A stretch of 64,000 nucleotides of DNA from Phototrophicaceae bacterium (GTDB taxonomy: Bacteria; Chloroflexota; Anaerolineae; Aggregatilineales; Phototrophicaceae), in assembly GCA_965204635.1 (NCBI GenBank), contig OZ242001.1, forward strand, positions 3,946,780 through 4,010,779, given 5' to 3'. Shown here in pieces: positions 4,825 to 54,121 of the stretch. Within the stretch, counting starts at the first letter, position 1; each line of letters begins with the position of its first letter. Position numbers and translations under genes: made by a program. The notes under the pieces were generated by a model. It saw only the letters and a list, made by a program, of their open reading frames with translations. It was not told where the DNA came from and did no database searches.

Positions 4825-4901
4825 TTCTGTGTTCTCTGCGTTTAAGAAAAATTTGAAGCGACTGCCCTGTTAATGGTCCGCCGGCACAAGCGCGAATTTT
4901 C

Positions 4902-6574: not shown

Positions 6575-6605
6575 TTGACTATTGATGTCTGCATAGTGTT
6601 ATGCT
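6575..6605 (+). promoter_or_regulatory. possible sigma70-like promoter (TTGACT - 18/19 nt - TATGCT)
   Basis: TTGACT at 6575-6580 and TATGCT at 6600-6605 in an AT-rich spacer about 45 nt upstream of the small ORF starting at 6650. Spacing is slightly long. Pattern match only. Confidence 0.25.
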
Positions 6606-6649
6606 ACACTATTGTAGCCAGAGTTTCACGGTACGGGAGCGGCAAAGCT

Positions 6650-6913
6650 ATGTCTGGGCAACTTCTAGAGCGAGTTCGAGGCGAGCAGATTCAAACTCCA
6701 CGTTCTGACGAGGCGAGCACCGCCAGATTTATAAGAGAAGATATTGAGACATTAGCCGCGCTAAAGGCAGATGTCAGATGGATCAAGTGGGTTTTGGGCA
6801 TAATGGCCACTCTAGGGACTGCTCTAGGAATTGCAGCATTCTTCCATATTCTGCATCGGTTTGGACAAATCAATGCGATTCTTTTGGAGATCGTTCAGAG
6901 GCTTCCACCCTAA
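6650..6913 (+). CDS. hypothetical small membrane-anchored protein
   Basis: ORF 6575..6913 opens with TTG. The more plausible start is ATG 6650 (MSGQLLERV...). One C-terminal hydrophobic helix (WVLGIMATLGTALGIAAFFHIL). Lies in a low-GC islet. No recognisable family. Confidence 0.3.
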   Translation: MSGQLLERVRGEQIQTPRSDEASTARFIREDIETLAALKADVRWIKWVLGIMATLGTALGIAAFFHILHRFGQINAILLEIVQRLPP

Positions 6914-36356: not shown

Positions 36357-37802
36357 CTAGTAAGTCCACCACCAGGTCTCCGGGTTGCCGATGTTGCGGA
36401 TGATGGCGAGATACCCATAGTGATTCTGGTAGGGCGCGATGAGGTTCAAAAGCGCATACTGCGCTTCGACGCAGGGCAACTCATTCTGCCAGCCGATGGC
36501 GCTTTGCGTGTAGGCTCGCTGCTGGGCGGAATGGCAGGCTTCGTGGATGAGGCTGCTGGCGGCGTCCACGATGTCGCCCATGCTTGGCGCCGCATCCGGA
36601 TTGTCGCTGTGCCGGTAACTGATGTCGACTATCCACTGCCGATTCAAAAAGCCGGCGCCGCCCCCATTCGGCGACATTTGAATCTTGCGCACGCCGCTGT
36701 TGTACAGATATTGCAACCAAGCCGGCGCTCTGTTCTGCATGAGTTCGAGCGTCTTGTTGATCAGATCGACGAAGCTCCGATTGCCTTCGATTTCCGGGCG
36801 CGTTCCAAGCGGCGCCGGGTGAACGCACTGGTTCGCCCGATACTGATGCCCGCCTTGCGCCCATTGGTCGGGGGTATGGCATGTGGCGTAATTCATGTAA
36901 CAGCAGTTGTCAAAGGGACGGGAGGTATCGCGGCCCAGGCCGAATGATCGCATCGTTTGCGGCGTGGCATTCAAGTTGCGCGCAACCTGAGAAACACGAT
37001 ACTGCGTGTGATAGCAGATGTTGTGCCGGAACGTCCAATAGCCGTCATTGAAATCCACATCGCTATGGCAATCCCAGCCCAGGGAGCAGCAGTTGTCCGC
37101 CCGCCCTGCAGCGCCACCCACGGGCGCGCCGCATTGATTATTCTGGTAAGCCCAATAGCCGTCTTGCCATTCCTGGTCGCTGTTGCATTGCCTGTCAACG
37201 AAGCAGCAATTGTCGACGGCTGCGGTTGCGCTGCTCACCGGCTGTACGGAGCTTTCTTGCCCGGCTGTCGCCCCGCTCGGGCATTGATTATTCTGGTATG
37301 CCCAATAGCCGTCTTGCCATTCCTGATCGCTGTTGCATTGCCGGTCCACGAAACAGCAATTGTCGACGCTGGCGGCTGTGCTTACGGTCGGCTGCACGGC
37401 GCTTTCCTGCCCGGCGGGCGCCCCGACCGGGCACTGATTGCGCTGGTAAGCCCAATAGCCATCGATCCAGTCTTTGTTGCTGTGGCACTGCCGGTCCACA
37501 TAGCAACAGTTGTCTACTTCCGCGGCCGCCGGCGCCTGGCTGCTCTGCGTCACGCGACGGTGCCCGACCCAACTCGCCATCCAAAGCTCGCGCCCGTTCC
37601 GGTTGATCTTTAGCCAGCGGTTGTAACTGTCGATGACTTGCAGAATGCTGCCAGCCGGCGCGGATTCGACCACGGCGCTCTCGAGGCTGTAGCCGGCGCG
37701 CAGATTCGTGTTGAATTCGACGCGTATCGAATAACCCTGCGCCATTGCGACATGGCAAAAAATGAAGATTGCAATTAAAACCGAGAATCGCATTGCTTTC
37801 AT
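36357..37802 (-). CDS. secreted Cys-rich repeat protein with SH3b-like N-terminal domain and C-terminal HExxH motif
   Basis: ORF 36357..37826. Start probably ATG 37802 or 37793 (MKAMRFSVLIAIFIFCHVAMAQ signal peptide). Five copies of a 28-aa module DNCC-x5-C-x15/16-C (e.g. DNCCFVDRQCNSDQEWQDGYWAYQNNQC). LIHEACHSAQQ near the C-terminus. Confidence 0.7.
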   Translation of the reverse strand: MKAMRFSVLIAIFIFCHVAMAQGYSIRVEFNTNLRAGYSLESAVVESAPAGSILQVIDSYNRWLKINRNGRELWMASWVGHRRVTQSSQAPAAAEVDNCCYVDRQCHSNKDWIDGYWAYQRNQCPVGAPAGQESAVQPTVSTAASVDNCCFVDRQCNSDQEWQDGYWAYQNNQCPSGATAGQESSVQPVSSATAAVDNCCFVDRQCNSDQEWQDGYWAYQNNQCGAPVGGAAGRADNCCSLGWDCHSDVDFNDGYWTFRHNICYHTQYRVSQVARNLNATPQTMRSFGLGRDTSRPFDNCCYMNYATCHTPDQWAQGGHQYRANQCVHPAPLGTRPEIEGNRSFVDLINKTLELMQNRAPAWLQYLYNSGVRKIQMSPNGGGAGFLNRQWIVDISYRHSDNPDAAPSMGDIVDAASSLIHEACHSAQQRAYTQSAIGWQNELPCVEAQYALLNLIAPYQNHYGYLAIIRNIGNPETWWWTY

Positions 37803-37988
37803 AGGTCGAAAGTCCTGTAGCTTCAATCCGCTAAAAGAAATCCTAGTATGTCAGCGATGCCGATGCAAAGCAATCAATCCGCCGCATTGCGGACCGACCG
37901 GATGCACGGAGGGCTCGGTGTTGCGATGGGGAAACTTGGCGGCCGTCCCGCAGGCGAAGTCGAATTGAGCCATTTGTGGCTCATTTCG

Positions 37989-39002
37989 CTATTCCTCTCC
38001 CGGCGGCAGCATCTTGTTGCCGGCATCCTGCAGGCGCCGCGTGAATTCCTCTTCAGAGAGCTTTTCTTCGATCATTAATCGATCTCGATAGGCCTCGTAT
38101 TCGTCCCTGACGCGCGCCTTCATCGCATCCCGCGACACCTTGCCAGCATTGTGCAGCAATGGCATTTCGTTCAGATCGCCAATGAACTGGTCAAGCTTCT
38201 TCACCCAGTCCGTCATATACATCGGCTTCTGATCGACAACCTGCAATTCGGCGAAGGACAAGAATTGCTCCACGAGTAGATTCAAGCGCTTCAACTCAAT
38301 GGCTTCAAGATAATTCTTGGCGATATAGGCATCGCGCAGGGACATCGTATCGCGCTTCCAGGTGGTCAAACCCATATTGAGTTTGTCGCTGCCGACCCGC
38401 TCCAGAATCAGTTCGGCGGCGGTATGCCCATGTATCGCATAATGGAATTTGTTCTGCACGGTCCCAAAGAACTTCTTCGCCACTGGTTTGCTCGACTGAT
38501 AATCAATGCTGGTGGCGAAGACATCAAGGACTTTGCGATAGAAGTTGTATTCTGAACTGCGGATATTGCGTATCCGCTGTTCGAGTTCCTCAAAATAATT
38601 CGAGCCGCCATGCGCCAGACGGTCATCGTCCATGACGAATCCCTTGACGATGAATTCGCGCAGTTGCCGTGTCGCCCATATACGGAATTGCGTGCCGCGA
38701 TAAGAATTGACGCGATAGCCAACGGAGATAATCATGTCGAGGTTGTAGTGGGCAATTTCTCTTGAAACCCTGCGCCCGCCTTCGATTTGAACTCGGAAGA
38801 AATACTTCCGAGTTGGATCTTCAGCCAATTCTCCTTCTGCATAAATGTTATTGATATGGCCGCTGATGTTTCTAGCGGTGACCTGCAGTAACTCCGCCAT
38901 ATCGCGCTGACTGAGCCAGACGCTTTCGTCCTGATACAGCACTTCCAGGCGCGTTTCGCCATCCGCCGTCTCGTAGAGAAGTATCTGATTGTCTTTCGCC
39001 AT
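37989..39002 (-). CDS. rhuM: RhuM-family (virulence protein RhuM-like) protein
   Basis: ORF 37989..39017. Start ATG 39002 (MAKDNQILLYETADGETRLEV...). LSQRDMAELLQVTARNISGHI..., REIAHYNLDMIISVGYRVNSYRGTQFRIWATRQLREFIVKGF are typical of the RhuM family. Low-GC islet. Confidence 0.75.
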   Translation of the reverse strand: MAKDNQILLYETADGETRLEVLYQDESVWLSQRDMAELLQVTARNISGHINNIYAEGELAEDPTRKYFFRVQIEGGRRVSREIAHYNLDMIISVGYRVNSYRGTQFRIWATRQLREFIVKGFVMDDDRLAHGGSNYFEELEQRIRNIRSSEYNFYRKVLDVFATSIDYQSSKPVAKKFFGTVQNKFHYAIHGHTAAELILERVGSDKLNMGLTTWKRDTMSLRDAYIAKNYLEAIELKRLNLLVEQFLSFAELQVVDQKPMYMTDWVKKLDQFIGDLNEMPLLHNAGKVSRDAMKARVRDEYEAYRDRLMIEEKLSEEEFTRRLQDAGNKMLPPGEE

Positions 39003-39140
39003 ATTCCCAGACTCCAAGGCCGTCCAAGACGCTAGGATAGCATGAATGTTCGATTATAGCCGAGTGCCGATCGCAAGCCAATAACCCCGCCGCATTGCGC
39101 AGCGACCAACTGCTGCGCAACTTCGGTGCAGGGCAGGGGC

Positions 39141-39332
39141 CTAGACTCCATTGCAATCGAAGGCTGGATCGCAAAAGACGAAATCCATGCTATCGCTGTC
39201 TGTGTTCTGCATAATCGTCAATTTGTCGGTCGTTGCAGCGGTGCCGATTTCGAGATTATAGTGGGCGACTTCGCGGGAAAACCAGCGGCCACCTTTGTTT
39301 TGAACTCTTGCAGAAAATGCAATAGTTGCCAC
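39141..39332 (-). pseudogene. decayed fragment of a second rhuM-like copy
   Basis: FSARVQNKGGRWFSREVAHYNLEI aligns with FFRVQIEGGRRVSREIAHYNLDMI of the intact gene. Its downstream ~60 bp (39069-39128) also resembles the stretch downstream of rhuM (37859-37920). Confidence 0.6.
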
Positions 39333-39437
39333 AACTCTTAGCGTCCTCGTCGAACTATTCGGAACTTCCGAGTAGTTGACCGCTAAATTGAACTAGAAAG
39401 TATTTCTTTCAAGTTGCGCCTGTCATTCATCGTTTTT

Positions 39438-39640
39438 CTCTGTAACTGTAAGAAAGTCGTGCAAAATGTGATGAGCAGTTTGTAGCAAGAGAGGGCGAGC
39501 CGCCGGGTCGCGTAGACACTGACCGCCGCTCGCCCGTACAGCGAGTCTTCTCTTATGCCGTAGGGGCGAGCCTTGGCTCGCCCGCATGTATGTCGCGAAA
39601 GACGATGCGCATTTTTTCAATTACTTACTTGCGTTTACTT
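39438..39640 (-). mobile_element. MITE-like composite repeat (copy 6, inverted)
   Basis: Collinear with copy 5 (…GTCGTGCAAAATGTGATGAGC…GCCGTAGGGGCGAGCCTTGGCTCGCCC…ATGCGCATTTTTTCAATTACTTACTTGCGTTTAC). Confidence 0.5.
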
Positions 39641-41966: not shown

Positions 41967-42944
41967 TCAGGTCGCTGCGGCCGGGTGCAGGTGACAAGCG
42001 ACTTGATGCGCCCGGTCCACCTCGATCAGAGGCGGCGGAATAGTCTCGCAAGTCGCCAATTTATCCGCATGGCAGCGCGGCGCAAAGGGACAGCCCTTCT
42101 GCGGAAAATTGTGCGACAGGTCGCCGCGAATGATGATCTCCTCGCGCTGAAGATCCGGGTCGGGCTCGGGTATGGCCGAGATCAAAGCTTGCGTATATGG
42201 GTGTTTCGGCTCTTCGAATATGACTTCGGTCTCTGCCACTTCGACGATCTTGCCCAAATAAAGCAGCGCCACTTCGTCGCACATATAACGCACGACGCCC
42301 AAATCATGCGAGATGAACAAATAGGTCAGGCCGAACTGGTCTTGCAAGTCCTGCAAGAGGTTTAGAATCTGGGCCTGCACCGAGACATCAAGCGCCGAGG
42401 TCGGCTCGTCCAGCACGATCAAGCGCGGCTGCACAGCGAGGGCGCGGGCGATGCCGATGCGCTGCTGCTGCCCGCCGCTGAATTCATGCGGATAGCGATA
42501 ATAATGTTCTTCTTTCAGGCCAACCACATGCATCAGTTCCAGCACGCGCTCGCGCGCCGCGTCGCCTTTGAGGCTTTCGTGAATCCAAAGCGGTTCGCTG
42601 ACGATCTGCCCGACCGTCATGCGGCCGTTGAGCGAGGCGGCCGGCGCCTGATAAATCATCTGGATCTCGCTGCGCAGGCGGCGCAATTCGCGCTGCTTGA
42701 GATGGGTGATATCTTGCTCGTCATAAAGAATCTGCCCGGCCGTGGGCTCCAGCAGGCGCAGGATGCACTTGCCGATGGTGGTCTTGCCCGAGCCCGATTC
42801 GCCCACCAGCCCCAGGGTTTTGCCCGCTTGCAGGGCGAAACTGACATCGTCGACGGCGCGGAAGTCGGCCGTCTTCTGATTGAACAAGCCGCCGCGGACC
42901 GGGAAGAACTTGCATAGACGATTGACTTCCAGCAGGTAGCTCAT
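41967..42944 (-). CDS. peptide/oligosaccharide ABC transporter ATP-binding protein (DppF/OppF-like)
   Basis: ORF 41967..43043. Start ATG 42944 ([14 protein letters not shown]) overlaps the upstream stop. [29 protein letters not shown]. Confidence 0.9.
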
Positions 42945-43966
42945 GCGTCCTCCGGGTAGAGGAAGCAGGAAGCCGTGTGCTGCGCGCCGACGGGAATCGC
43001 GTCCGGCACGGCATTCCGACAGATGTCCATCGCCTGTTCGCAACGCGGGTGAAAGCGGCAGCCGGCCGGCGGGTTGATGAGGTTGGGAATCATGCCCGGG
43101 ATGCCTTCCAAACCGCCGCGGCTGATATCTTTCTGCGGCACAGCCGCTATCAGACCGCGCGTGTAGGGATGCTTTGGGTTCTTGAAGAGCTCGCGAACGG
43201 GCGACTCTTCAATGACCCGGCCGGCGTACATGACGGCGACCCGCTCACAACTGCGGGCGACCACGCCTAAATTATGCGTGATCAGCAGCACGGTCAAGCC
43301 CAGCTGCGCCACGAGCGAGCGGATCAGGCGCAGGATCTGCGCTTGAATGGTGACATCAAGGGCGGTGGTCGGCTCGTCGGCAATGAGCAGGTCCGGGTCG
43401 CCGGCCAAGGCCATCGCAATCAGCACCCGCTGCCGCATGCCGCCGCTGAATTGATGCGGGTAATCGTTGATGCGCACATCGCCATCCGGGATGCCGGTCA
43501 GTCGCATCAGCTCAACCGCTCGCTCATGCGCCTCGCGGCGCAACTGCCGCGCCGATGGCAGAAAGCCGCGCCAGCGCCCGGGCACCTTCTTGCCCTGCGC
43601 GCGCTGATAGAGCACGGCATCCACCAACTGCTCGCGAATGGTGAAGAGCGGGTTCAGGTTTGTCACCGGGTCTTGAAAGATCATGCCGACATGGCGGGCG
43701 CGAAAGGCTTCCATTTCGCTCTCGGTCTTGCTCAGGATGTCTTCGCCGGCGAATGTGACGCGCCCGGCCGTGATGAGCCCGGGCGGCATGGGGATCAAGC
43801 GGGGCACGGAGAGCGCGGTCATCGACTTGCCGCAGCCGGTTTCGCCCACCAGCCCAAGCACATCGCCGCGCCGCATCTGTAAGTTGACGCCGGCCAAGAC
43901 CTTGACCACGCCGTCATAAGTGTGGAACTCGAGGTGCAAGTCTTCTATGTTGAGCAGGTCCGTCAT
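42941..43966 (-). CDS. peptide/oligosaccharide ABC transporter ATP-binding protein (DppD/OppD-like)
   Basis: 341-aa [32 protein letters not shown]-terminal oligopeptide-ABC extension with Cys motif. Confidence 0.9.
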
Positions 43967-44056
43967 CTTAGCGCTCTATATCCAGACCAAGTCACGCGCA
44001 TGTCAAGGCGACCAACCTGGCCGCCGGCCTCGTCCAACGAGGCTTTAGAAAATCGC

Positions 44057-44077
44057 GGGCGACCGCGTCAGTCGCCC
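44057..44077. repeat. REP-type hairpin
   Basis: GGGCGACCGCGTCAGTCGCCC followed by CTAC, between the dppD-like and dppC-like genes. Confidence 0.6.
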
Positions 44078-44096
44078 CTACGAAGTTTTCCTGCCT

Positions 44097-45002
44097 TCAT
44101 CGCCGAGCCCGCGGATCAAGCACATCGCGCAGGCCGTCGCCGATCAAGTTCCAACTGAATACCATCAGCCAAATCGCCAAACCGGGAAAGGTGGCGATCC
44201 ACCACTCATCCGGGAAGTAGCGGCGGCCATCGTTGATCATGGCGCCCCATTCCGGCGTCGGCGGCTGCGCGCCCAGGCCGATAAAGCCGAGCGCGGCCGC
44301 GGTCAAAACGGCGAAACCAAAGTCCGTGGTCATCTTGATAATGATGGGCGAAACGGCATTGGGCAGGATGTGGCGGAAGATGATGCGCAGGTGGCCGGCG
44401 CCGATGCCGTACGCGGCTTCGACGAAGGGCTCTTCCCGCAGCGAAAGCACGAGACTGCGCGTCAGCCGGGCGAAGCCGGGCCACCAGACCAGCGAGATGC
44501 CAATCATGGCGTTGATGATGCCTTTTCCCAAGGCGGCCGAAATCGCGATCGCCAGCACCAGCGCCGGCACGGTCAAGAAGATATCGGTGATGCGCATCAG
44601 CAAGTCGTCAAGCCAGCCGCCAGCATAACCCGAGATCGCGCCGATGGTGACGCCGATGCTGGTCGCCAACAGGATGATCACCGTGCCGACTTGCAGCGCC
44701 AGCCCGGTGCCCATGACGACGCGGCTGAAGATATCGCGCCCAACCTTATCGGTGCCGAAGGCGAATTCCTCGTTGGGCGGCTGCAAGCGCGCGGCGACCC
44801 GGGTCTTGCCGGCGGCGTCTTCGGGATAGGGAGCGATGACCGGGGCGAAGATCGCCACCAGCAGGATGAAGATCAGCATCGCCAGCCCGACCATTGACAG
44901 CGTGTTGGAGCGAAAACGATAGACTCCGCGGGCGAAATTCTCCCAACGCGCCGAGCGCGCGGACTTGCGCTTGTCCGCCTGGAAACTGGGCAACTCAGCC
45001 AT
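44097..45002 (-). CDS. ABC transporter permease (DppC/OppC-like)
   Basis: ORF 44097..45020. Start probably ATG 45002 (AGGA 8 nt upstream). TM-rich, with a binding-protein-dependent permease loop (…EPFVEAAYGIGAGHLRIIFRHILPN…). Confidence 0.85.
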   Translation of the reverse strand: MAELPSFQADKRKSARSARWENFARGVYRFRSNTLSMVGLAMLIFILLVAIFAPVIAPYPEDAAGKTRVAARLQPPNEEFAFGTDKVGRDIFSRVVMGTGLALQVGTVIILLATSIGVTIGAISGYAGGWLDDLLMRITDIFLTVPALVLAIAISAALGKGIINAMIGISLVWWPGFARLTRSLVLSLREEPFVEAAYGIGAGHLRIIFRHILPNAVSPIIIKMTTDFGFAVLTAAALGFIGLGAQPPTPEWGAMINDGRRYFPDEWWIATFPGLAIWLMVFSWNLIGDGLRDVLDPRARR

Positions 45003-46008
45003 AGCGAATCCTGGGATCAAGGATGCCGTAGACGATATCGGTCAGAATATTCACGATGCTGAAGACGATGCCATAAAGAATGGCGATGCCCATAATCGGC
45101 TGAAAATCGAGGCTGAGCGACGCTTTGACCGCATATAGCCCGAGCCCGGGCCAATCGAAGATGGTTTCAATCAAAATCGCGCCCGCCATCAGCCAGCCGA
45201 AATTGAGCGAGATGACGGTGATGGTGGCGATGAGAGCGTTTCGAAGCACATATTTGAAAATGATGACGCGATAAGGGATGCCGATGGCGCGCTCCATGCG
45301 CACGAAGTCTTTCTCCAGCGCTTCGACCATGCTGGCGCGGGTGATGCGCGTGATGCTGGCGAAGGCGCCGAATGAGAGCACCAGCGCCGGAATGAACAAG
45401 TGCCGCAGCGATACGAGGAAGGTTTGGAAGTCCAGTTGGATGAGGCTGTCGACCAGGAACAAACCGGTCGTGGCGGCCGGCGGCGCAACCAGCACAGGCA
45501 ATCGCTTGCTGATCGGGAACCAGCCCAATTCGAGCCCGAACCAGGTCTGAAAGATCATCGCCAGCCAAAACGAAGGAAAGCTGACGAAGAAGAGGGATAG
45601 AACGCGGGCGACGTGGTCGGGCAGACGATTGCGATACATGGCCGAGATGACGCCGGCCGGGACGCCCAAGACCGTAGCGATGACGACGGCGGCGGTAGTC
45701 AGTTCGAGGGTGGCGGGCCAGAACGCGCGCAGGTCGCCGATGACAGCGCGGCGGGTGTAAAGCGATTCCCCCCAGTCGCCGCGGAAGAGCCCGGTCATGT
45801 AGTTGACGTATTGGATTGGCAAGGGCTGGTCCAAGCCCAGTTCGCGCCGCAAGGCCGCCTTGATTTCTTCGGTCGCTTGAGGACCGGCGGCTAAGCCGAC
45901 GGGATCGCCCGGGACGATGCGGGCGATGGAAAAAGTCAGGATGCTCAAGCCGAGCAGGGTCGGTATGACGAGGGCGATGCGCCGCAGGATGTAGAATCGG
46001 AGGTTCAT
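44995..46008 (-). CDS. ABC transporter permease (DppB/OppB-like)
   Basis: 337-aa ORF. MNLRFYILRRIALVIPTLLGLSILTF N-terminus typical of DppB/OppB. EAA-like loop …VEALEKDFVRMERAIGIPYRVIIFKYVLRNA. Confidence 0.9.
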   Translation of the reverse strand: MNLRFYILRRIALVIPTLLGLSILTFSIARIVPGDPVGLAAGPQATEEIKAALRRELGLDQPLPIQYVNYMTGLFRGDWGESLYTRRAVIGDLRAFWPATLELTTAAVVIATVLGVPAGVISAMYRNRLPDHVARVLSLFFVSFPSFWLAMIFQTWFGLELGWFPISKRLPVLVAPPAATTGLFLVDSLIQLDFQTFLVSLRHLFIPALVLSFGAFASITRITRASMVEALEKDFVRMERAIGIPYRVIIFKYVLRNALIATITVISLNFGWLMAGAILIETIFDWPGLGLYAVKASLSLDFQPIMGIAILYGIVFSIVNILTDIVYGILDPRIRYG

Positions 46009-46017
46009 GGGGCTGCG

Positions 46018-47208
46018 TCAAGCATTGAACAGCGATCTGTTTCCAGGTTCTGTAAGCTGTTTGCTTTTGCTTCGATCAGCTGGTCTGACATCCTCAAAGC
46101 GGTGTATCTCAATGCGTTTGACTCTGTTTGCCATTCTCATACGCTTGCCTGTAACGATAACGCGCTGGTCGAGGTAGGCTTGCGCGACCTGAACAATGAG
46201 ATCTTTGCCGCCTTCTATAGTCCAGTCGCCATCATCAGCCGTTTCCAATACCACGGTTGTATCCCGTACACTTACAATCAGCAGCTTACCTGTCTTGCTT
46301 ATGTCCTCATCGGTCGCTTCTGGAGTACGACCGAATTCTGGCAAGGGCAATGTACTTAGATGATGCTTGGATTTGCTAAGCGTTACTATCTTTGGCACAT
46401 CATCCACAACTGCTTGAAATTTCACTGACGAAATCTTTTGTCCGTCCGGAGCCAGCTTCGTCGCCGCTTTTATGAAATCTGCATAATCCTTTTGATTATC
46501 CAGATCTTCTTGCAGTTCCTCAACTTGGTCTCCTTCCAACAGGGACAAGTGGTCCAGGAACGGCTGAATTGCTTCATCAAAGAGACCGAAACCGGGCAAC
46601 GCGTCTTCCCTTTTTGGCTCGCCCAGGCGCAAATTGACAATGCAACTGCCTGCCTCAAAGCCTTCAAAAAAGACTGGTATATCCCCAATTTCGTTTGATA
46701 GGTTGGAAACCTCGTCGCGAGCTTTTCGAAAGGCGGACTTCGCTGAGATCCGCAGCATCGCGGCTATACTGGGCGTACGAGAAGACACCTCCTCTTCGGC
46801 GGCTTTGCCAAAGCCCACCACACTGCCTTGCAGAGCTAATTGCAATTTCGCCTCGCTCAAATGGATTCCCGACTTGGCAAGGTTTACCGTGCCTAGAAGA
46901 TCCTTGAGTTGCCACTCAATATCACTGCGCGGATTGCCTGCCAGCGCACGATAGATCAACTTTTCTGCGCCAGCATACATCCCGCAAAGCCAGCCCAATG
47001 TGGCCGCGCTACGATGTATGACGCCGCGAGAAGGCTCAACATGGACGTCCGCCATCTGGTCGGCGGCGGCTTTTTCCGTTTCGAAAGCCATCTTCATCAG
47101 CCGCAGATACTTATCACGCTCGCCGAAGAGCTTCGCCTGGTCCGCCTCGTCGGCGTATTCCATGGCAATTCTGTGCAGTCTCTTTACTTCACGGGCGGTA
47201 TGGTTCAT
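46018..47208 (-). CDS. hypothetical protein (large gene of the low-GC two-gene cassette)
   Basis: ORF 46018..47253. Candidate starts are ATG 47208 (overlaps the upstream gene by 20 nt) or ATG 47163. About 396 aa. AT-richer than flanks. No recognisable catalytic motif. An uninterrupted ORF of this length in ~50% GC DNA is unlikely by chance. Confidence 0.6.
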   Translation of the reverse strand: MNHTAREVKRLHRIAMEYADEADQAKLFGERDKYLRLMKMAFETEKAAADQMADVHVEPSRGVIHRSAATLGWLCGMYAGAEKLIYRALAGNPRSDIEWQLKDLLGTVNLAKSGIHLSEAKLQLALQGSVVGFGKAAEEEVSSRTPSIAAMLRISAKSAFRKARDEVSNLSNEIGDIPVFFEGFEAGSCIVNLRLGEPKREDALPGFGLFDEAIQPFLDHLSLLEGDQVEELQEDLDNQKDYADFIKAATKLAPDGQKISSVKFQAVVDDVPKIVTLSKSKHHLSTLPLPEFGRTPEATDEDISKTGKLLIVSVRDTTVVLETADDGDWTIEGGKDLIVQVAQAYLDQRVIVTGKRMRMANRVKRIEIHRFEDVRPADRSKSKQLTEPGNRSLFNA

Positions 47209-47758
47209 ATCGCACCATGTAGATAGTCGGTCTGCTGAAATCAGTTGCAACAACTATCGCCGGTACCTGCGCGTTTACGGATTCAGCAATCTGCGCTATT
47301 CCGTCTTTGATCGCCCCAGTAATATCGCTTGGATATCGTGCATGGGACAAACCTTTGGCTTCCAATCCCATTTCGTGTTGAAACAGATAGTCATCGTCAC
47401 TATCTGTTTGGCTTAGCCAGAAATCAAACCCGCTCTTTATTCGCGCGCGTTCAACCACGGTATAATTCGTAAACGCCAGAATTATCAGAATAGCAATGGC
47501 TTCGCCTGCTCGTTCGGCTGCATTGCGCGAATCTCCAAAGGATTGGCGAATTCTCTCCGAATAAGACATCTTCCATTGTATCCGCAAATCAGCCAGCACT
47601 TCATCAAAATTTCGCAGGTCGCACGGGACCCCAGATGAATGCCTGTGCGGTTCCATGCACATTACAACCGCTTCTTGCATCCGCAAAGTCAGAGCGTCTG
47701 TTAGAGCAGGAATATCCGCATTCAAGTCATCCATATCCAAAATGACTGTATCTGCCAT
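47189..47758 (-). CDS. hypothetical protein with PD-(D/E)xK nuclease-like motif arrangement (small gene of the low-GC cassette)
   Basis: 189-aa ORF. E86 (GEAIAILII), D112 (GFDFWL) and E133-A-K135 (GLEAKG) occur in the order and spacing of restriction-endonuclease-like folds. Low GC. Confidence 0.55.
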   Translation of the reverse strand: MADTVILDMDDLNADIPALTDALTLRMQEAVVMCMEPHRHSSGVPCDLRNFDEVLADLRIQWKMSYSERIRQSFGDSRNAAERAGEAIAILIILAFTNYTVVERARIKSGFDFWLSQTDSDDDYLFQHEMGLEAKGLSHARYPSDITGAIKDGIAQIAESVNAQVPAIVVATDFSRPTIYMVRYEPYRP

Positions 47759-47822
47759 TCTCGCCTTCTATAGGTGTGGTTGGATATGCGCAGTAAAGCC
47801 TGAGTCTGGCAAATCGGAAGAA

Positions 47823-47848
47823 TCTCCCCTCAGAGGTCTGAGGGGAGA
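47823..47848 (-). terminator. perfect hairpin downstream of the SBP gene (possible terminator/attenuator)
   Basis: TCTCCCCTCAGA-GG-TCTGAGGGGAGA (12-bp arms), 15 nt after the SBP stop (47863). On the minus strand it is followed by a moderately T-rich TTCTTCCGATTT. Confidence 0.45.
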
Positions 47849-47862
47849 CAAACCATGACTGA

Positions 47863-49419
47863 CTAACAGCCTTCCATCCACAGGTCCTGGAAGAGCGCGG
47901 TCAGCGGGTACATCGGCGAGTAGACAAACCCTTTCACGCAGGTATTGAGCGCGAAGCTGCTGTCCTCGGTATACATCCAGACCGAGGGCTGCTCGGCGGA
48001 GATGAGTTCCTGCGCTTCCGTGTACATCGCTTGCCGCGTCTCGGCGTCGCCGATTGTGCGCGCCTGGTCCAGCAGTTCATTCACCCGATCATTCTGGTAG
48101 AAGCTGCAGGAATTGAAGCTGCCCCATTGGTCCGAGTGATACTGGTTGTAGAGATGCGCGTCCGGATCCAGGAAGGGCGGCAAGGTGTAGATGTTGATGA
48201 TATCCGGACCCGTATCCGGCGTGGCGCAACTTGCGACCATATCGGGCCAGAGCATCGGGATCATGTTGAGCTCAATACCGATCTCGGCCAAGCCTTCCAG
48301 CAGAATCAGCCCCGGGATTTCTTCGCGCGGGAATTCGGTCACGTAGACGTAGTCCAGCGTGATGCCGCCCTCGGGCCAGGCCGACTGCGCCAGATGGGCG
48401 CGCGCCGCGTCCAGATCATAAGTCGGGTAGCTCAAGCCTTCGACATAGCCGACAAAGTTGGCCGGCGTTGGCCCAGGCAATACTGTGATCTTGACGTCTT
48501 GCGCGTCAACCATCGCATCGTAGTTCATGGCATGGGCGATAGCCTTGCGCAAGTGGATATCGCTGGTGTACTCGCCCAGGTTGTTCATCTTGAGGGTATT
48601 GGTGAAGAAGCCGCCATGCTCTTCCCAAACGTGATCCGGGGAATCGATAATCTTTTCCTTATCGCTCGCGGCGACGGTATCGGCGATATGAGTTTCACCT
48701 GCCAGCAGCGAATTCAACTGAGTAGAGGCGTCGCGCTGGATGATCCAGAAGAAGCCGTCCAGGTGATCGTCGCCGGTCCAGCCCGCCCAGTAATCGTCGA
48801 CAGCGACGAACTCGTAGATATTGCCGATTTCCCACCGCCCTTGCGTGAAGGGACCGGAACCGGCCGCGTTTTCCTTTAGGAAAGTCTGGCCCATGTCATC
48901 GCCCAGGTTGGCTTCGACGATAGCCGGGTTGACCACGAAAAGCTGCGGCAGCGTGCCGATGAAGGGGGCGTAGGGCTGGGTGAGCGTGAATTGAACGGTA
49001 TGTTCATCGAGGGCCTGCGCCGAATTCTCATCGGTGATTGTTTCCCAGCGCCAGGTCGGCGGGCCGGAGATCGCCATCGCGCGGTTGAAGCTGTAAACGA
49101 CGGCATCGGCGGTCACCGGGCTGCCATCGTGGAAGACGGCGTTGTCGTGCAGGGTGAAGGTCCAGACGGTGGCGTCATCGTTGACTTCATGGCTCTTCAC
49201 GAGATGCGGAATGGTATCGCTGCCGCGATAGATGTACAGCGCGTCATACAGGCTGCGCAAGGCGGCGTTGATCGAATAATTCTCGCCGGTTGCCGGGTCG
49301 ATATTGTCGATATCCTGGTTGCCGCCGTAGAGCAGGATATCGTCTTGGGCGACGGCGACGGACGACGTGAAAAGCGCGAGGCTCAACACTAGCAGTGCAA
49401 ATGTGACACGTCGAAACAT
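47863..49419 (-). CDS. ABC transporter substrate-binding protein, family 5 (DppA/OppA-like)
   Basis: ORF 47863..49797. True start ATG 49419 (MFRRVTFALLVLSLALFTSSVAVAQ, signal peptide) preceded by AAGGAG. About 518 aa, typical size and composition of SBP_bac_5. Confidence 0.85.
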   Translation of the reverse strand: MFRRVTFALLVLSLALFTSSVAVAQDDILLYGGNQDIDNIDPATGENYSINAALRSLYDALYIYRGSDTIPHLVKSHEVNDDATVWTFTLHDNAVFHDGSPVTADAVVYSFNRAMAISGPPTWRWETITDENSAQALDEHTVQFTLTQPYAPFIGTLPQLFVVNPAIVEANLGDDMGQTFLKENAAGSGPFTQGRWEIGNIYEFVAVDDYWAGWTGDDHLDGFFWIIQRDASTQLNSLLAGETHIADTVAASDKEKIIDSPDHVWEEHGGFFTNTLKMNNLGEYTSDIHLRKAIAHAMNYDAMVDAQDVKITVLPGPTPANFVGYVEGLSYPTYDLDAARAHLAQSAWPEGGITLDYVYVTEFPREEIPGLILLEGLAEIGIELNMIPMLWPDMVASCATPDTGPDIINIYTLPPFLDPDAHLYNQYHSDQWGSFNSCSFYQNDRVNELLDQARTIGDAETRQAMYTEAQELISAEQPSVWMYTEDSSFALNTCVKGFVYSPMYPLTALFQDLWMEGC

Positions 49420-49582
49420 GACTATCTCCTTTGCGATAGATTGGAAAATAGGCCGTAGAATCTGTAATCTGCGCCGTAGTTTAACGAAATTCGCTAAGGC
49501 TTGCAATTCAGCGGCGGGCAGCGCATACTGGCGCCGATGTAGCCAAATCGGTCCGGCTGCGAGGCGCGAAGGAGTTATCTGC

Positions 49583-50599
49583 ATGCGAGTGATCCAAGTC
49601 GGCATCGGCGGAATGGGCGACACCTGGCTGCGCGCTGTGCAAAATTCGGAGAGCGTCGACTTCGCCGGCTTCGTCGAGATCAACGACGGCATCGCGCGCG
49701 CCCAAGCCGAAGCGCACCAGCTCGATCGCTCGCTGATTTTCCGGTCCCTGCCCGAGGCGCTCGCGCGCGTGGAAGCCGATGCCGTCATCAACGTCACGCC
49801 GCCGGATGTTCACCGCGAAATAAGCATCGCCGCCCTGGAAGCGGGCTTGCCAGTGCTGACCGAGAAACCGCTGGCGGGCAACCTGGAGGACTCGAGGGCG
49901 ATTGTCGCGGCGGCCGAAGCAACCGGCGTCTTGTGCAGCGTCGCCCAGAATTATCGCTATCGCCCGCTGGCGCAGACGGTCAAGTCTGCGCTGGACGGTT
50001 CCGATCTGGGCCGGGTTGGCGCGGTACGCGTCGAGTTCTACCGGGGGCCGCATTTTGGCGGCTTCCGCGAAGAGATGGCCCAGCCGCTGATCATCGACAT
50101 GTCCATTCATCACTTCGACATGATGCGCCTTTTCCTCGGCAGCGACGCCACAAAGATAAGCGCGCGCAGTTGGAATCCGTCCTGGAGTTGGTTCAAGGGC
50201 GACGCCAGCGCGGCCGCGCAGATCGGCTTCGCTAATGGCGTCGAGGTCAGCTACAGCGCCTCTTGGTGTTCACAAGCTTGGGAGACCAGTTGGAACGCGA
50301 ACTGGCGCTTTGACTGCGAGCGCGGCGTACTGCTGGTCGAGGATGACAAGGTCTTCATGCAGCAACTGCTCAGCGCAGGCGATGGCGAGCGGGGCCGCGC
50401 CAACAAGCATAGCGAAAAGCGGGAACTGCCGCTGCTCCCGATGGCGCGCGAAAGCCAGGATTACCTGCTGCAGGAGTTCTATGAAGCGGTGAAGCGGGGC
50501 GCGCCCACCGCCACAACGGCGCAGGACAACCTCAAGACGATGGAATTCGTTTTTGGGGTGGAGCAAGCCTGCGACAGCGGTCAGCCAGTCAAGCTCTAA
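49583..50599 (+). CDS. Gfo/Idh/MocA family oxidoreductase
   Basis: ORF 49367..50599. Start ATG 49583 preceded by GAAGGAG. MRVIQVGIGGMGDTW Rossmann motif and PVLTEKPL motif. Confidence 0.85.
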   Translation: MRVIQVGIGGMGDTWLRAVQNSESVDFAGFVEINDGIARAQAEAHQLDRSLIFRSLPEALARVEADAVINVTPPDVHREISIAALEAGLPVLTEKPLAGNLEDSRAIVAAAEATGVLCSVAQNYRYRPLAQTVKSALDGSDLGRVGAVRVEFYRGPHFGGFREEMAQPLIIDMSIHHFDMMRLFLGSDATKISARSWNPSWSWFKGDASAAAQIGFANGVEVSYSASWCSQAWETSWNANWRFDCERGVLLVEDDKVFMQQLLSAGDGERGRANKHSEKRELPLLPMARESQDYLLQEFYEAVKRGAPTATTAQDNLKTMEFVFGVEQACDSGQPVKL

Positions 50600-51256
50600 G
50601 GCGTCGCCTGCTCACAGCCCTCATCCCGCTATCTCTTCGGCGGGCAATTCCACTACCAGAAATTCCAGGCTGATCCTGCGCGAGAATGGCTTCCCCCCAT
50701 TGCTATGGGGGGATTGAGGGGGGTTCGTCGCGCAAGCCTGCGACAGCGGTCAGCCAGTCAAGCTCTAAGGCGTCGCCTGCTCACAGCCCTCATCCCGCTA
50801 TCTCTTCGGCGGGCAATTCCACTACCAGAAATTCCAGGCTGATCCTGCGCGAGAATGGCTTCCCCCCATTGCTATGGGGGGATTGAGGGGGGTTCGTCGC
50901 GCAAGCCTGCGACAGCGGTCACCCAGTCAAGCTCTAAGGCGTCGCCTGCTCACAGCCCTCATCCCGCTATCTCTTCGGCGGGCAATTCCAGTACCAAAAA
51001 TTCCAGGCTGATCCTGTGCGAGAATGGCTTCCCCCCATTGCTATGGGGAGATTGAGGGGGGTTCGTCGCGCAAGCCTGCGACAGCGGTCAGCCAGTCAAG
51101 CTCTAAGGCGTCGCCTGCTCACAGCCCTCATCCCACTATCTCTTCGGCGGGCAATTCCAGTACCAAAAATTCCAGGCTGATCCTGCGCGAGAATGGCTTC
51201 CCCCCATTGCTATGGGGGGATTGAGGGGGGTTCGTCGCGCAAGCCTGCGACAGCGG
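50563..51256. repeat. tandem array, 169-bp unit x ~4.1, beginning inside the 3' end of the oxidoreductase CDS
   Basis: GCAAGCCTGCGACAGCGGTCAGCCAGTCAAGCTCTAA recurs at 50563, 50732, 50901, 51070 and (partial) 51239. Units differ by a few substitutions. Each unit carries one copy of the 32-nt C6/G6/G6 element (50692, 50861, 51030, 51199). Confidence 0.9.
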
Positions 51257-51289: not shown

Positions 51290-52453
51290 TCAATCGAAAT
51301 AGCTGTCCCCATTCCACAGCAGTGATTTGGCGACCGCGTCGTTCAACTCGACGCCGATGCCCGGCGCCTCCGAAACAATCATGCTGCCGTCGCGCAGGAA
51401 AGGCTTGTCGCCGTCGCAGAGCTCGCTCCACCAGGAAATCGAGCGCGCATGAAACTCCAGGAAGAGGAAATTCGGCACCGCCGCCAGTACGTGGCAAGCC
51501 GCCATCATGCCCAGCGGGGAAGAGACGTTATGGGGCGCAATCGGGATATAATGCGCATCGGCGAGGTCGGCGATGCGCAATCCCTCGGCGATGCCGCCGG
51601 CTTTAGCCAAATCCGGCATGATGACATCCACCGCCGCCTTGTTGAAGAGCTCCAGGAAGTCAAAGCGGGTGTATTGATTTTCGCCGGTGCAGATCACGGT
51701 TGAGGTCGAGGCGCGCACCTGCGCCAGCGCGTCCACATTTTCGGCGGGCACCGGCTCTTCCAGCCAAAGCAGGCGCAACGGCTCCAGCGCCCGCGCCAGC
51801 GTGATCGCGGAAGGCAGATCAAATTGGCCATGGCAGTCGATGGCCAGGTCAATCTCGAAGCCGATCGCCTCGCGCACGCCTTCAACCAGGCCGATGACAT
51901 GCGACATTTCCCGCGCGCCCACCGTCCAGTTGTAGGCATCGAGCCTGCCGTGCCCGGTGTGATCGACATCGAACTTGACCGCGCCGAAGCCCTCCGCCAC
52001 CGCTTCCAGGGCCTTCTCGCCGAATGAGGCCGGGCTGTCTTCTTCGCCGAAGTGACAATCGGCGTAGAGCCGGATTCTGTCGCGGTACTTGCCCCCAAGC
52101 AGCTTGTAGACCGGCACGCCCAGGGCCTTGCCGACGATGTCATGCAGGGCGTTGTCGATGCCCGTCAGCGCGAAAATCAGGGGCGCGCTGCCGGCGCCGC
52201 CATAGCGCCCGGCCCGCCGCAGCTTCTCGTAGAGCGGCTTGATGTTAAAGGGGTCTTCGCCGATCAGCAACTCCTTGAGCGCCAGGATGGCATATTTGGT
52301 GGCGAAGCCGGAATAGCCGGGGCCGCCCGAATTGCATTCGCCGGTGCCGACGATGCCTTCGTCGGTGTAGACGCGGACGAAGGTCCAGACGCTGCCGCCG
52401 CTATCGGGCTCTTGCCGGCCGATCACACAAGCTTGTACATCGGTGATTTTCAT
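51290..52453 (-). CDS. enolase-superfamily dehydratase (mandelate racemase/muconate lactonizing enzyme family)
   Basis: 387-aa ORF. MKITDVQACVI...VRVYTDEGIVGTGEC N-terminal capping domain. Barrel with metal ligands in VKFDVDH / LWLEEP / TGEN context. Confidence 0.8.
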   Translation of the reverse strand: MKITDVQACVIGRQEPDSGGSVWTFVRVYTDEGIVGTGECNSGGPGYSGFATKYAILALKELLIGEDPFNIKPLYEKLRRAGRYGGAGSAPLIFALTGIDNALHDIVGKALGVPVYKLLGGKYRDRIRLYADCHFGEEDSPASFGEKALEAVAEGFGAVKFDVDHTGHGRLDAYNWTVGAREMSHVIGLVEGVREAIGFEIDLAIDCHGQFDLPSAITLARALEPLRLLWLEEPVPAENVDALAQVRASTSTVICTGENQYTRFDFLELFNKAAVDVIMPDLAKAGGIAEGLRIADLADAHYIPIAPHNVSSPLGMMAACHVLAAVPNFLFLEFHARSISWWSELCDGDKPFLRDGSMIVSEAPGIGVELNDAVAKSLLWNGDSYFD

Positions 52454-52625
52454 TTAGAGTCCCTTCTTAAGAAGGCAGTCGATATTGTTCTCATACTGGT
52501 CGGGTTGGCGAGAGGCCAGGGTGTCCTTGAGCGTTGGATGCATCCCAAGCTACAATGAATTCTTCAGTCATCGCCCCAGTAATACCATGTAAGTCATGCG
52601 AAATTCAGCGTAAGGTCGATATGTA

Positions 52626-52690
52626 GGGGCGACACTGTGTGTCGCCCGAAAATTCGCGCTTGTGTCGGCGGGCGATTCACAGAATCGCCC
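52626..52690. repeat. REP-type hairpins
   Basis: GTAGGGGCGACACTGTGTGTCGCCC ... GGGCGATTCACAGAATCGCCCCTAC. The ~110-bp block 52585-52695 is collinear with 30850-30955. Confidence 0.7.
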
Positions 52691-52715
52691 CTACACCGTT
52701 CTTCAGATTGTTGCA

Positions 52716-52940
52716 TTACTTTCTTGGTGTTGCTTCAGTCATCGCTTCTGTCATCTCGTGAAGTTGAGTTTGGCTCAAACCATCGCCCATTGCATCCAGC
52801 AAAACATTCAGTTGCTGCATCTTTTCTTTCGACGTCAATTCAACGGGCTTTTCGGAGACAGGATCAAGATAGCGGCGCAGGAACTGACGCTCCTCATCAT
52901 TCAATTCAGCTACGGCGCGCAAAATGTCTTCGAAAATCAC
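52716..52940 (-). CDS. small helical protein, addiction-module-component-like (orphan)
   Basis: 74 aa, GTG start 52940 preceded by GAGGGAGGAG (5-nt spacer). ...AELNDEERQFLRRYLD... resembles short helical antitoxin components. No toxin gene adjacent. Confidence 0.45.
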   Translation of the reverse strand: MIFEDILRAVAELNDEERQFLRRYLDPVSEKPVELTSKEKMQQLNVLLDAMGDGLSQTQLHEMTEAMTEATPRK

Positions 52941-53179
52941 TTGTTCTCCTCCCTCTGGCGAGGCATGGCGCTGCGATAGAGTTGATGAAGCGTCGCGCCT
53001 ATTATAGCAGTAATCGAGTTGATTCCTTCATCGAAGGTCTGGACTAGTGTCTTAGCGGTTTGAGAAAGGCGCTGCCGAAGAATCACTCTTCCAGCAAGCT
53101 GGCAATTAGGAGACAAAGTCCACTGCTGCCCATTGACGAAACAGACTCAGGGACTTTCGTTGGCGGATGGGCGCAGCGA

Positions 53180-54121
53180 CTAATAGTGATATTGCTCAAG
53201 CGACGCCAAGATCCGCTGAATCTCGCGCGCGATATCCGGCGGAACCCGCGGGTTGAAGGGTCCGCCTGTGCCGCCGACCACGTCATCAAAGCCGCTGCAA
53301 TTGATCGCTTCCATCACCGCGGAATAATTGTAAGCGCGTTCCTGCATGAAGCGGATGTCCTCCAGGGGCGAAATGACTTCTTCGATTTGCCGCGCCGCTT
53401 CATAATCGCGCGCCCGTTGCGCATTGTTGATCTCGTCCGAGGCGCGCGCCACCACGATGTTGATGCCGGAGGTATGGCCCTTGGCGCCGAGCTCCGCCGC
53501 CGCCGTCGAGCGGTCGCCGATGCCCCAAATGACGATCTTGCTCGCGTCCAGCGCCTCCATAAAAGGCGCGACATCGTCTTCATCCGTGCCGATCTTGACG
53601 CCGACGAAATGGGGAGAATCTTGCAGCAGGCGGATGATCATCTCGCGGTCGCGCGGGCGGCGATAGTAATAGAGGAAGCGCGCGCCGTTTTCCCGCGCCT
53701 GCTCCTCAGCGAATTGCATCAAGGTCTCGTAGAGCCCTTGCGGCCCATAAGTGCCGCTGAGCGGCATGATCAGGGTGACATTGGGCGGGCGCGGCAGGGC
53801 GGCCAAACGCCGCATCAAGTCGGCGGCCGCCGGCAGCGGATTCGGCAGGACCGCCGCCATCAGAACGCCGGCGCCATCCATGCGCTGACCGGCGATATCG
53901 AGCAATTTGACCTGGTCGTCATAAGCGATGTGGTGGATGAGGCTGGTCCCAGCGATGGAGATGACGCGCGGCCGGCCGTTGCTCAGGTTGTTGTTGCGCA
54001 TCAAGTATTCGACATTCTTCGCATGTCCGGCGAAGTCGATCTCGCGCCCGGCGAAGGGAATCAGCGGAATGCCGATCACTGAGTTGAGCGCGTCGAGGAG
54101 TTCCGGCGCATCAATTGTCAT
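53180..54121 (-). CDS. DHDPS/N-acetylneuraminate lyase family protein (possibly KdgD-like 5-dehydro-4-deoxyglucarate dehydratase)
   Basis: 313-aa ORF. (beta/alpha)8-like pattern with candidate Schiff-base lysine in HFVGVKIG. Context is next to a glucarate-dehydratase-like gene. Family call is moderate and the specific activity is inferred. Confidence 0.55.
   Translation of the reverse strand: MTIDAPELLDALNSVIGIPLIPFAGREIDFAGHAKNVEYLMRNNNLSNGRPRVISIAGTSLIHHIAYDDQVKLLDIAGQRMDGAGVLMAAVLPNPLPAAADLMRRLAALPRPPNVTLIMPLSGTYGPQGLYETLMQFAEEQARENGARFLYYYRRPRDREMIIRLLQDSPHFVGVKIGTDEDDVAPFMEALDASKIVIWGIGDRSTAAAELGAKGHTSGINIVVARASDEINNAQRARDYEAARQIEEVISPLEDIRFMQERAYNYSAVMEAINCSGFDDVVGGTGGPFNPRVPPDIAREIQRILASLEQYHY

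Follow-up and report, generated by a model that had tools for sequence, protein, structure and literature searches.

Type II toxin-antitoxin (TA) and abortive-infection (Abi) modules, for example PemK/MazF-type pairs and pairs with sensor-bearing antitoxins, are compact two-gene units in which the genes overlap. Such modules are AT-rich and patchily present, and they share their neighborhoods with TA, restriction-modification, and mobile genes. Where the putative toxin gene decays, the partner gene stays, and co-variation is seen between the effector and the adjacent partner domain. The same features were found for a pair of genes on contig OZ242001.1 of a Phototrophicaceae bacterium, a member of a Chloroflexota family, within the 64,000-nucleotide stretch of DNA that was analyzed here (the window). 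The pair, referred to as the cassette, comprises a small gene and a large gene wedged between the solute-binding protein (SBP) gene dppA and the permease gene dppB of a Dpp-type operon. The evolutionary behavior of the module to which the cassette belongs is that of a conflict locus, with presence/absence polymorphism, old alleles, allele exchange, AT-richness, and asymmetric decay. This behavior points to a putative role in defense or addiction, as had been proposed in an earlier reading of the window from its sequence (the original prediction). There is about an even chance that the pair belongs to a widespread two-gene conflict module, of the TA or Abi type, that has not been described. However, the module has no sequence relation to any catalogued toxin or antitoxin. 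It also differs from type II TA and Abi modules in that the putative effector gene comes first, the partner lacks a helix-turn-helix (HTH) or ribbon-helix-helix (RHH) domain and carries large extra domains (a middle domain and an OB-like barrel), and one effector-partner fusion was found.

The Hachiman system likewise combines two genes, which encode a PD-(D/E)xK-type effector (HamA, a DUF1837 nuclease) and a larger partner (the helicase HamB), and a loose likeness to HamA/HamB had been raised in the original prediction. That likeness did not hold up. The partner described here is predicted to consist of TPR-like helices, an alpha/beta domain, and an OB-like barrel, and neither helicase or ATPase motifs nor a helicase-like domain was found in its sequence or structural model. 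PADLOC searches with 14 diverse alleles of the small protein and 15 of the large protein gave no match to HamA or HamB, and neither did Pfam searches with the proteins of the window. Defense and accessory hotspots resemble the locus in their fixed position between conserved genes, in a content that varies among close relatives, and in exchange through recombination in the flanks. However, the position described here separates the SBP gene from the first permease gene within a single operon, and all of its occupants are alleles of one family, in three architectures.

The small gene (47189..47758, minus strand, as are all of the operon and cassette features below) encodes 189 amino acids (aa). 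The large gene (46018..47208) encodes 396 aa from ATG 47208, or 411 aa if TTG 47253 is used. Homologues of the large protein begin at the position of ATG 47208, indicating that the two genes overlap by 20 nt. Both open reading frames (ORFs) are real genes, with many homologues and ratios of nonsynonymous to synonymous substitution (dN/dS) of 0.10 to 0.42. A spacer of 9 nt (46009..46017) between the stop codon of the large gene and the ATG of dppB (46008) is the right-hand boundary of the cassette. On the other side, the spacer between the SBP gene and the small gene (47759..47862) holds a hairpin (47823-47848) with 12-nt arms of 100% complementarity and a 2-nt loop, followed by a cassette-specific leader with a GAAGG Shine-Dalgarno-like motif. 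The ORF list and the sequence bore out the original prediction on the ORFs, their overlap, the short gap before dppB, and the hairpin. The G+C content was 0.479 in the small gene and 0.510 in the large gene, versus 0.586 to 0.637 in the dpp genes. At third codon positions (GC3), it was 0.46 and 0.53 versus 0.75 to 0.83. Thus, the cassette is AT-richer than its surroundings and its codon choice looks foreign, as had been judged by eye, but the accompanying estimate of over 60% G+C for the flanks was slightly too high (measured, about 59 to 64%).

The AlphaFold2 (AF2) model of the large protein (predicted local distance difference test [pLDDT], 83.8) has three parts. The N-terminal domain (aa 1-118; 46855..47208), with predicted helices in aa 3-114, is TPR-like, and TPR proteins were among the Foldseek matches of the large protein in the PDB. 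The helical N-terminal third noted earlier for this protein is therefore also seen in the model. This domain, which carries the motif EPTRSVLHRSAATLA...AEKLI..ALAGNPP, is the universally conserved domain of the partner. The middle alpha/beta domain (aa 119-292; 46333..46854) has conserved LPGF and LAPDG..IS.V motifs and no recognizable relative. The C-terminal beta-barrel (aa 293-376; 46081..46332; predicted strands in aa 297-376) is OB-fold-like and is a putative nucleic-acid- or ligand-binding module. Its Foldseek matches included CST TEN1/STN1, IF1, the LysRS N-domain, and RNase E S1 (E, 0.02 to 0.15; probability up to 1.0; low template modeling [TM] scores), and the C terminus of the large protein gave a sub-threshold match to Pfam DUF5818 (E, 9e-5). 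The remaining tail (aa 377-396; 46018..46080 with the stop codon) was modeled with low confidence (pLDDT below 50 for residues 382-396). No signal peptide or membrane segment was visible in the sequence or model of either protein.

The N-terminal domain also occurs without the other two. The partner is just 116 to 129 aa long in Anabaena, Aliterella, a Desulfobacteraceae metagenome-assembled genome (MAG), and the Anabaena cylindrica PCC 7122 plasmid pANACY.01 (pair WP_015217606/WP_015217607), and these stand-alone partners are homologous to the N-terminal domain of the large protein (40% identity; hhalign probability, 99.9%; E, 3e-36). At its core, the module consists of a protein of about 185 aa and an overlapping helical partner of about 120 aa. 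Three compact, intact partner forms coexist at the dpp site: a short form with the N-terminal domain only (118 to 141 aa), a medium form in which the C-terminal barrel directly follows this domain (about 205 aa), and a long form. The middle domain is missing from the short and medium forms. Long partners (367 to 403 aa) were found at dpp sites, at the related loci L007, L010, L011, and L113, and on IMG/VR contigs. In an exhaustive search with residues 119-396, the matches (240 representative clusters) were almost all in proteins of 365 to 400 aa, in which this region has the same position. The explanation that "truncated" large genes are products of decay was mostly rejected, because the short and medium forms are compact and intact and match the stand-alone partners of other phyla. 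At L004 / L028 (contig of 3,163,893 bp; locus L004, 8597-10211), a medium-form partner had been split by the gene caller, and dppB had been called at a reduced length of 275 aa. Our own ORF extraction recovered an intact medium-form partner of 206 aa, and the short dppB call may reflect a frameshift or assembly error.

Single-sequence searches returned 37 homologues of the small protein and 68 of the large protein; all of the named ones were from Chloroflexota MAGs and had consecutive locus tags. A profile of diverse small-protein alleles returned 3,628 clusters at E ≤ 0.001 (clustered at 90% identity). Among the 120 matches listed, none had a Pfam domain and every one named by its source was "hypothetical." Besides Chloroflexota, the family is found in Cyanobacteria (Anabaena, Microcoleus, Aliterella, Leptolyngbyaceae), Desulfobacteraceae, Poribacteria, and other hosts. 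Irrespective of phylum, all contexts examined had an overlapping partner gene directly after the small gene, usually with an overlap of 4 nt. The two genes thus co-occur outside this locus, as an overlapping pair in unrelated genomes and contexts. In one metagenomic protein of 575 aa (P0219), which was the one clear exception in the exhaustive search, the small protein (E, 2.8e-36) is fused to a long partner (E, 3.7e-67). This protein could be a real Rosetta-stone fusion or an artifact of a frameshift or assembly error at the overlapping stop and start codons.

Some of the neighborhoods outside the dpp site contain genes of restriction or TA types. At L007, the module is directly downstream of a gene for a 367-aa protein with EVE and NmeDI_C (restriction-endonuclease C-terminal) domains (3795-6651). 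The GC3 of these three genes was 0.34 to 0.38, versus 0.72 in the adjoining acyl-CoA dehydrogenase gene, and together the EVE-NmeDI_C gene and the module may be an island of three genes. Neighbors of the module include PemK, Prim-Pol, and HTH_17 genes at L011, methyltransferase genes at L010, a UPF0175/DUF3368 pair at L094, and a DUF4365 gene at L095. The module is also present on a cyanobacterial conjugative plasmid.

The original prediction could assign the pair to no named system, and the curated libraries were likewise negative for both proteins. Searches with the 14 and 15 diverse alleles gave nothing consistent, the only recurring matches being sub-threshold ones of the partner to DUF5818 and TPR_14. 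In PADLOC-DB 2.0, the diverse alleles gave isolated single-member matches only (E ≥ 0.003) and the window proteins gave none. Profile searches of both families against PDB sequences returned no relatives, and our literature searches turned up no description of this protein family.

A genome scan with the SBP protein yielded 80 loci, mostly in MAGs labeled Phototrophicaceae, Aggregatilineales, Anaerolineae, or Chloroflexota. A full cassette was present at 21 of 56 ingroup loci and a shorter one at 9, and 22 loci were empty, with spacers of 74 to 300 bp. All of the more distant outgroups were empty at the dppA-dppB junction. On a neighbor-joining (NJ) backbone tree of SBP and DppB, built without support values, 29 of 74 loci (outgroups included) were occupied and 45 were empty, requiring at least 15 state changes. 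Occupied and empty sites were interspersed at the tips, the root state was empty, and occupied sites were confined to one clade. An NJ tree of 163 small proteins placed the alleles from the dpp site in a single clade, with all members from known non-dpp contexts outside it. The presence of the module at exactly the same site in many relatives, together with the single clade of dpp-site alleles, indicates one old insertion followed by loss, diversification, and exchange. The horizontal acquisition postulated earlier is supported by foreign composition, but it was one old insertion at this site and not a recent one-off event. A recent single insertion was rejected because orthologous sites are occupied by alleles of 31 to 93% identity that form one dpp-site clade. 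Empty dppA-dppB junctions, which the original prediction had recommended looking for, exist in close relatives.

Among 210 pairs of full alleles, the median identity was 82% for SBP and 90.5% for DppB, versus 43% for the small protein and 49% for the large protein, and the identities of cassette and flanks were uncorrelated (rho about 0). In pairs that share an allele, the synonymous divergence (dS) of the cassette (0.09 to 0.5) was lower than that of the flanks (0.6 to 1.6), indicating that alleles moved between hosts that had already diverged. The dN/dS ratios given above for the cassette genes demonstrate purifying selection. GC3 was low in all 21 full alleles (0.39 to 0.60 versus 0.69 to 0.82), and the module is also AT-rich compared with the adjoining sequence at L007 and L010. 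Thus, the cassette is neither conserved vertically within the operon nor of normal G+C content, the outcome that had been named as damaging to the original prediction. Pure vertical inheritance was rejected on the basis of the empty sites in close relatives, the number of state changes, the lower dS of the cassette, and the lack of correlation with the flanks.

Decay at the dpp site was asymmetric. At L029, the small gene was lost and a short partner is intact. At L060, only 62 codons of the small gene are left next to an intact partner of 392 aa. At a third locus, L085, the entire cassette is in decay, and the small protein has Gly in place of D112 and Met in place of K135. No locus with a small gene but without the partner N-terminal domain was found among the dpp-site loci. 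Such a pattern would be predicted for a small protein that does harm on its own and is neutralized by the N-terminal domain. The C-terminal domain of the small protein co-varied with the partner N-terminal domain (rho = 0.66) more than with the middle (0.24) or C-terminal (0.12) domain. The middle and OB-like domains of the partner co-varied with each other (rho = 0.70) and were largely independent of the small protein. The partner N-terminal domain was also the most conserved (median identity 64%, versus about 40% for the others). Its co-variation with the small protein and the one fusion suggest that the small protein and its partner may interact directly.

In the AF2 model of the small protein (pLDDT, 87.8; predicted TM score [pTM], 0.86), an N-terminal alpha/beta domain (aa 1-75) precedes a C-terminal alpha-beta-beta-beta-alpha-beta core (aa 77-173). 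The predicted core elements are a helix (77-96), three strands (99-107, 110-117, and 130-137), a second helix (143-159), and a final strand (167-173), which is the element order of the PD-(D/E)xK core. E82 and E86 are on the first helix, D112 (GFDFWL) is on strand 2, and E133-x-K135 (LEAKG) is on strand 3. Among 32 small-protein alleles spanning 26 to 93% identity, D112 (in GxDxWL) and E133 were invariant, E82 was kept in 31, and E86 was kept in 28. R104, Q127, and Q156 were nearly invariant. Of the residues proposed in the original prediction for a PD-(D/E)xK core (E86, D112, E133, and K135), D112 and E133 were conserved throughout and lie on the expected elements of the model, E86 and K135 were each kept in 28 alleles, and E82 was better conserved than E86.

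In Foldseek searches against the PDB, the leading matches of the small protein included tRNA-splicing endonuclease, CinB nuclease, and the SPARDA nuclease domain, but these matches were weak (E, 0.07 to 0.4; TM, 0.3 to 0.35). The Foldseek results were taken only as weak pointers to fold type; no match at E ≤ 0.001 was obtained for the small protein in the PDB or BFVD or for the large protein in the PDB. The small PD-(D/E)xK domains of the DREN/DUF4365-type, SPARDA, and CinB proteins and the tRNA-splicing endonuclease EndA, which were the best structural matches, are similar to the small protein in size and in combining an N-terminal domain with an alpha-beta-beta-beta-alpha-beta core. However, the small protein had no Pfam or PDB-sequence profile match to established PD-(D/E)xK members, including Pfam DUF4365/PDDEXK. 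EndA uses a different catalytic triad. Because the Foldseek matches were not significant, a nuclease identity is regarded as plausible rather than established. The C-terminal half of the small protein plausibly resembles a metal-dependent PD-(D/E)xK nuclease, and the small protein is taken as the putative effector on the basis of its model and conserved residues.

The genes on either side of the cassette are native to the operon, as judged from their ORFs, Pfam domains of orthologues, and, for the SBP gene, the 80 related loci. The SBP gene (47863..49419; SBP_bac_5, DppA/OppA type) precedes the cassette, and the block of dppB (44995-46008), dppC (44097-45020), dppD (42941-43966), and dppF (41967-42944), all with high GC3, follows it (41967..46008). 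The hairpin also belongs to the operon because empty sites in relatives have equivalent post-SBP stem-loops, which are often repetitive extragenic palindromic (REP)-like. In the closest occupied/empty pair, L027/L023, the shared sequence includes the hairpin and ends about 39 nt past the SBP stop codon; homology is regained about 8 nt upstream of the dppB ATG. Between these points are about 133 nt of unrelated spacer in the empty L023 and about 1.77 kb in the occupied L027. The hairpin was accordingly rejected as a part of the cassette.

The edges of the cassette have neither terminal inverted or direct repeats nor a target-site duplication, and no recombinase gene is nearby. A transposon-like or integrase-mediated insertion was rejected on these grounds. 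The simplest mechanism of exchange is homologous recombination within the conserved dpp genes, which fits the weak correlation between SBP and DppB identities discussed below. In the window and L052, for example, DppB is 97% identical, the cassette 91 to 93%, and SBP 80%. The large gene usually stops between -4 and +10 nt from the dppB start across alleles. Scans for promoters and terminators within and around the cassette gave no signals above those of shuffled controls, and an Rfam search gave nothing. With this tight spacing and with signals no better than chance, read-through together with the permease genes is the natural expectation, and co-transcription of the cassette with dppBCDF is plausible.

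The SBP-dppB spacers of empty sites are hypervariable (L019, L021, L026, L034, L051, L055, L059; approximately locus positions 7555-7740). Many contain one or two copies of a GC-rich REP-like palindromic unit, GGGGCGACC...GGTCGCCCC, and others contain hairpins of the CCCTCCC/GGGAGGG type. A family of short palindromic elements seems to turn over at this junction.

A possible course of events can be outlined for a conflict module of the TA or Abi type. The upstream gene would encode a nuclease-like effector of about 185 aa, and the gene overlap suggests that effector and partner may be translated in a coupled manner. The helical N-terminal domain of the partner, about 120 aa, would bind the effector and restrain or regulate it. 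In the long form, the probable role of the middle domain and the OB-like barrel would be to sense, or to target the module to, nucleic acid or a trigger molecule. Insertion into the dppA-dppB spacer would have happened once, in the ancestor of one Chloroflexota clade (Phototrophicaceae, Aggregatilineales, or Anaerolineae MAGs), with one edge of the module just 3' of the native post-SBP hairpin and the other about 9 nt short of dppB. There, transcripts from the operon promoter would presumably extend through the module, giving expression as low as that of the permease genes. Thereafter, the clade would have stayed polymorphic for the presence of the module, with many old, functionally constrained allele lineages and repeated loss, while alleles and the short, medium, and long architectures would have been swapped between related hosts by homologous recombination in the dpp flanks. 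It is also possible, though we consider it doubtful, that the module represents a phylum-spanning, nuclease-based immune or Abi family. The effector would then be held by a helical adaptor, the exchangeable extensions of the partner (absent, OB barrel alone, or middle domain with OB barrel) would be trigger sensors, and balancing (frequency-dependent) selection would keep the locus multi-allelic in this Chloroflexota clade.

Several observations weigh against a conflict module of the TA or Abi type with a nuclease effector. K135 was kept in 28 of 32 small-protein alleles and is Ser in one subclade, and the best Foldseek matches of the small protein in the PDB (E, 0.07; TM, about 0.35) and BFVD (E, 0.12) were not significant. 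In view of the Ser found across that whole subclade and the nonsignificant structural similarity to nucleases, catalysis by the small protein is putative. Searches of Pfam, PADLOC, NCBIfam, and PHROGs with the window proteins identified no family, the sub-threshold DUF5818 match being the sole one, and neither experiment nor a named homologue links the family to toxicity or phage defense. An order with the effector gene first is less common for type II TA systems, and no HTH, RHH, or AbrB domain was detected by Pfam in 15 partner alleles, unlike typical type II antitoxins. The family was found in 4 of 72,556 plasmid records, in none of 50,697 isolated phage genomes, and on 14 IMG/VR contigs. 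Because the family is rare on plasmids and sparse in viral data, classic plasmid addiction is unlikely to be its main niche, and a phage or plasmid origin was rejected on the same counts. SBP and DppB identities between genomes (L014-L067, L092) were themselves only weakly correlated (rho = 0.33), which indicates that the flanks recombine, with frequent breakpoints within the operon at or near the cassette. The asymmetry of decay was seen at two loci and the fusion in one sequence, and neither NJ tree has support values.

Four other explanations were considered. The chance that the small protein is not a nuclease is modest but appreciable; it might belong to a regulatory, sensing, or other non-catalytic complex that keeps an endonuclease-like fold, and could still be accessory and mobile. 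Nonsignificant Foldseek matches, the change of K135 to Ser in a large subclade, the variable E86, and the absence of a profile match to any nuclease family all favor this possibility. However, D112, E133, and E82 are invariant or nearly so across alleles of 26 to 93% identity and lie on the canonical secondary-structure elements, and D112 and K135 are among the residues mutated in the fully decaying copy at L085. Some active PD-(D/E)xK enzymes (BamHI, BglII) have the Lys replaced at the equivalent position. That the pair is instead a toxin-immunity cassette for interbacterial competition, of the polymorphic-toxin type, with the small protein as a restriction endonuclease (REase)-fold toxin and the helical partner as its immunity protein, seems improbable. 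It would account for the gene order (toxin, then immunity), the extremely diverse and AT-rich alleles, the co-variation of the helical partner with the putative toxin domain, and the persistence of the partner where the small gene is lost. However, the small protein has no secretion or trafficking domain, no RHS, contact-dependent inhibition (CDI), type VI or type VII secretion system (T6SS, T7SS), or LXG-type carrier was found near the loci examined, and there was no Pfam Tox-REase or Imm match. The effector-partner fusion and the OB-fold extension also misfit an immunity protein.

There is likewise a small chance that the cassette is a free-standing selfish element of the homing-endonuclease type, which would cut empty dppA-dppB junctions so that repair copies the cassette along with flanking markers. 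The cassette resembles such elements in its precisely intergenic position between highly conserved genes, its presence/absence polymorphism, and its decaying copies. Flanking markers also seem to be co-transferred, as in the comparison of the window with L052 and in the lower dS of cassettes than of flanks, and one of the 14 small-protein members had a marginal PADLOC "HEase" match (E, 0.017). However, that lone match is at chance level, and recent spread by homing should leave the alleles more uniform than the flanks, whereas alleles at the same site are deeply diverged (only 31 to 49% identical) and maintained by purifying selection. In addition, a second gene is always needed, and its variable domains change while the target site is constant. 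The family is not bound to one target site, occurring in many unrelated contexts without common flanks, and the empty-site spacer is itself hypervariable. Least probable, with only the slimmest of chances, is that the pair serves the Dpp-type transporter or local metabolism as a housekeeping accessory and is inherited vertically with the operon. Such a role would fit the tight packing of the pair between dppA and dppB, which is shared by many relatives with wider synteny. However, 22 of the 56 ingroup sites (and the 45 of 74 on the backbone tree) are empty in operons that appear otherwise intact, and homologous pairs occur in unrelated contexts of other phyla. The composition of the cassette is foreign, its allele divergence is decoupled from that of the operon, and neither protein has a visible signal peptide or membrane segment. 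Given the empty sites and the non-dpp contexts, the housekeeping role is effectively refuted.

Other low-G+C or variable spots were seen around the operon. Downstream of it, a second low-GC stretch (37600-39600; 0.50 to 0.535) contains a Virulence_RhuM gene (37989-39017, minus strand; E, 1e-98). The equivalent position has an N6_N4 methyltransferase-HNH fusion in L001 and L114, and both a RhuM gene and a methyltransferase-HNH gene in L004. This stretch looks like another variable accessory spot flanking the dpp operon. On the other side, a tandem array of 4.1 copies of a 169-bp unit with 98% identity (50563-51256), which yields near-identical 66-aa ORFs, is located between a GFO_IDH_MocA-type gene (49367-50599, plus strand) and an MR_MLE enolase-type gene (51290-52453, minus strand). 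Rfam gave nothing on this array, and the relative L001 has a 99-aa ORF at the equivalent spot. A third low-GC patch (52400-53200; about 0.50), by the MR_MLE gene, contains only short ORFs, for example one of 136 aa (52637-53047, plus strand).

If the conflict-module interpretation of the pair holds, a new and widespread family of about 3,600 clusters (at 90% identity), for which there is no Pfam, NCBIfam, PADLOC, or PHROG model, would join the bacterial conflict systems. Its modular logic would be a constant effector and adaptor with swappable putative sensor domains, and an immune locus inside a transporter operon would be an unusual location. Accessory conflict genes can, on this reading, reside in a metabolic operon without breaking it. 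If the pair proved to be inert or non-nucleolytic, it would still be a well-documented intra-operon polymorphic accessory locus. The dpp-site population is a natural experiment in which one position has dozens of deeply diverged functional alleles, three architectures, empty sites, and decaying copies. It is thus suited to the study of how immune or addiction genes are maintained, exchanged, and lost in uncultured symbionts.

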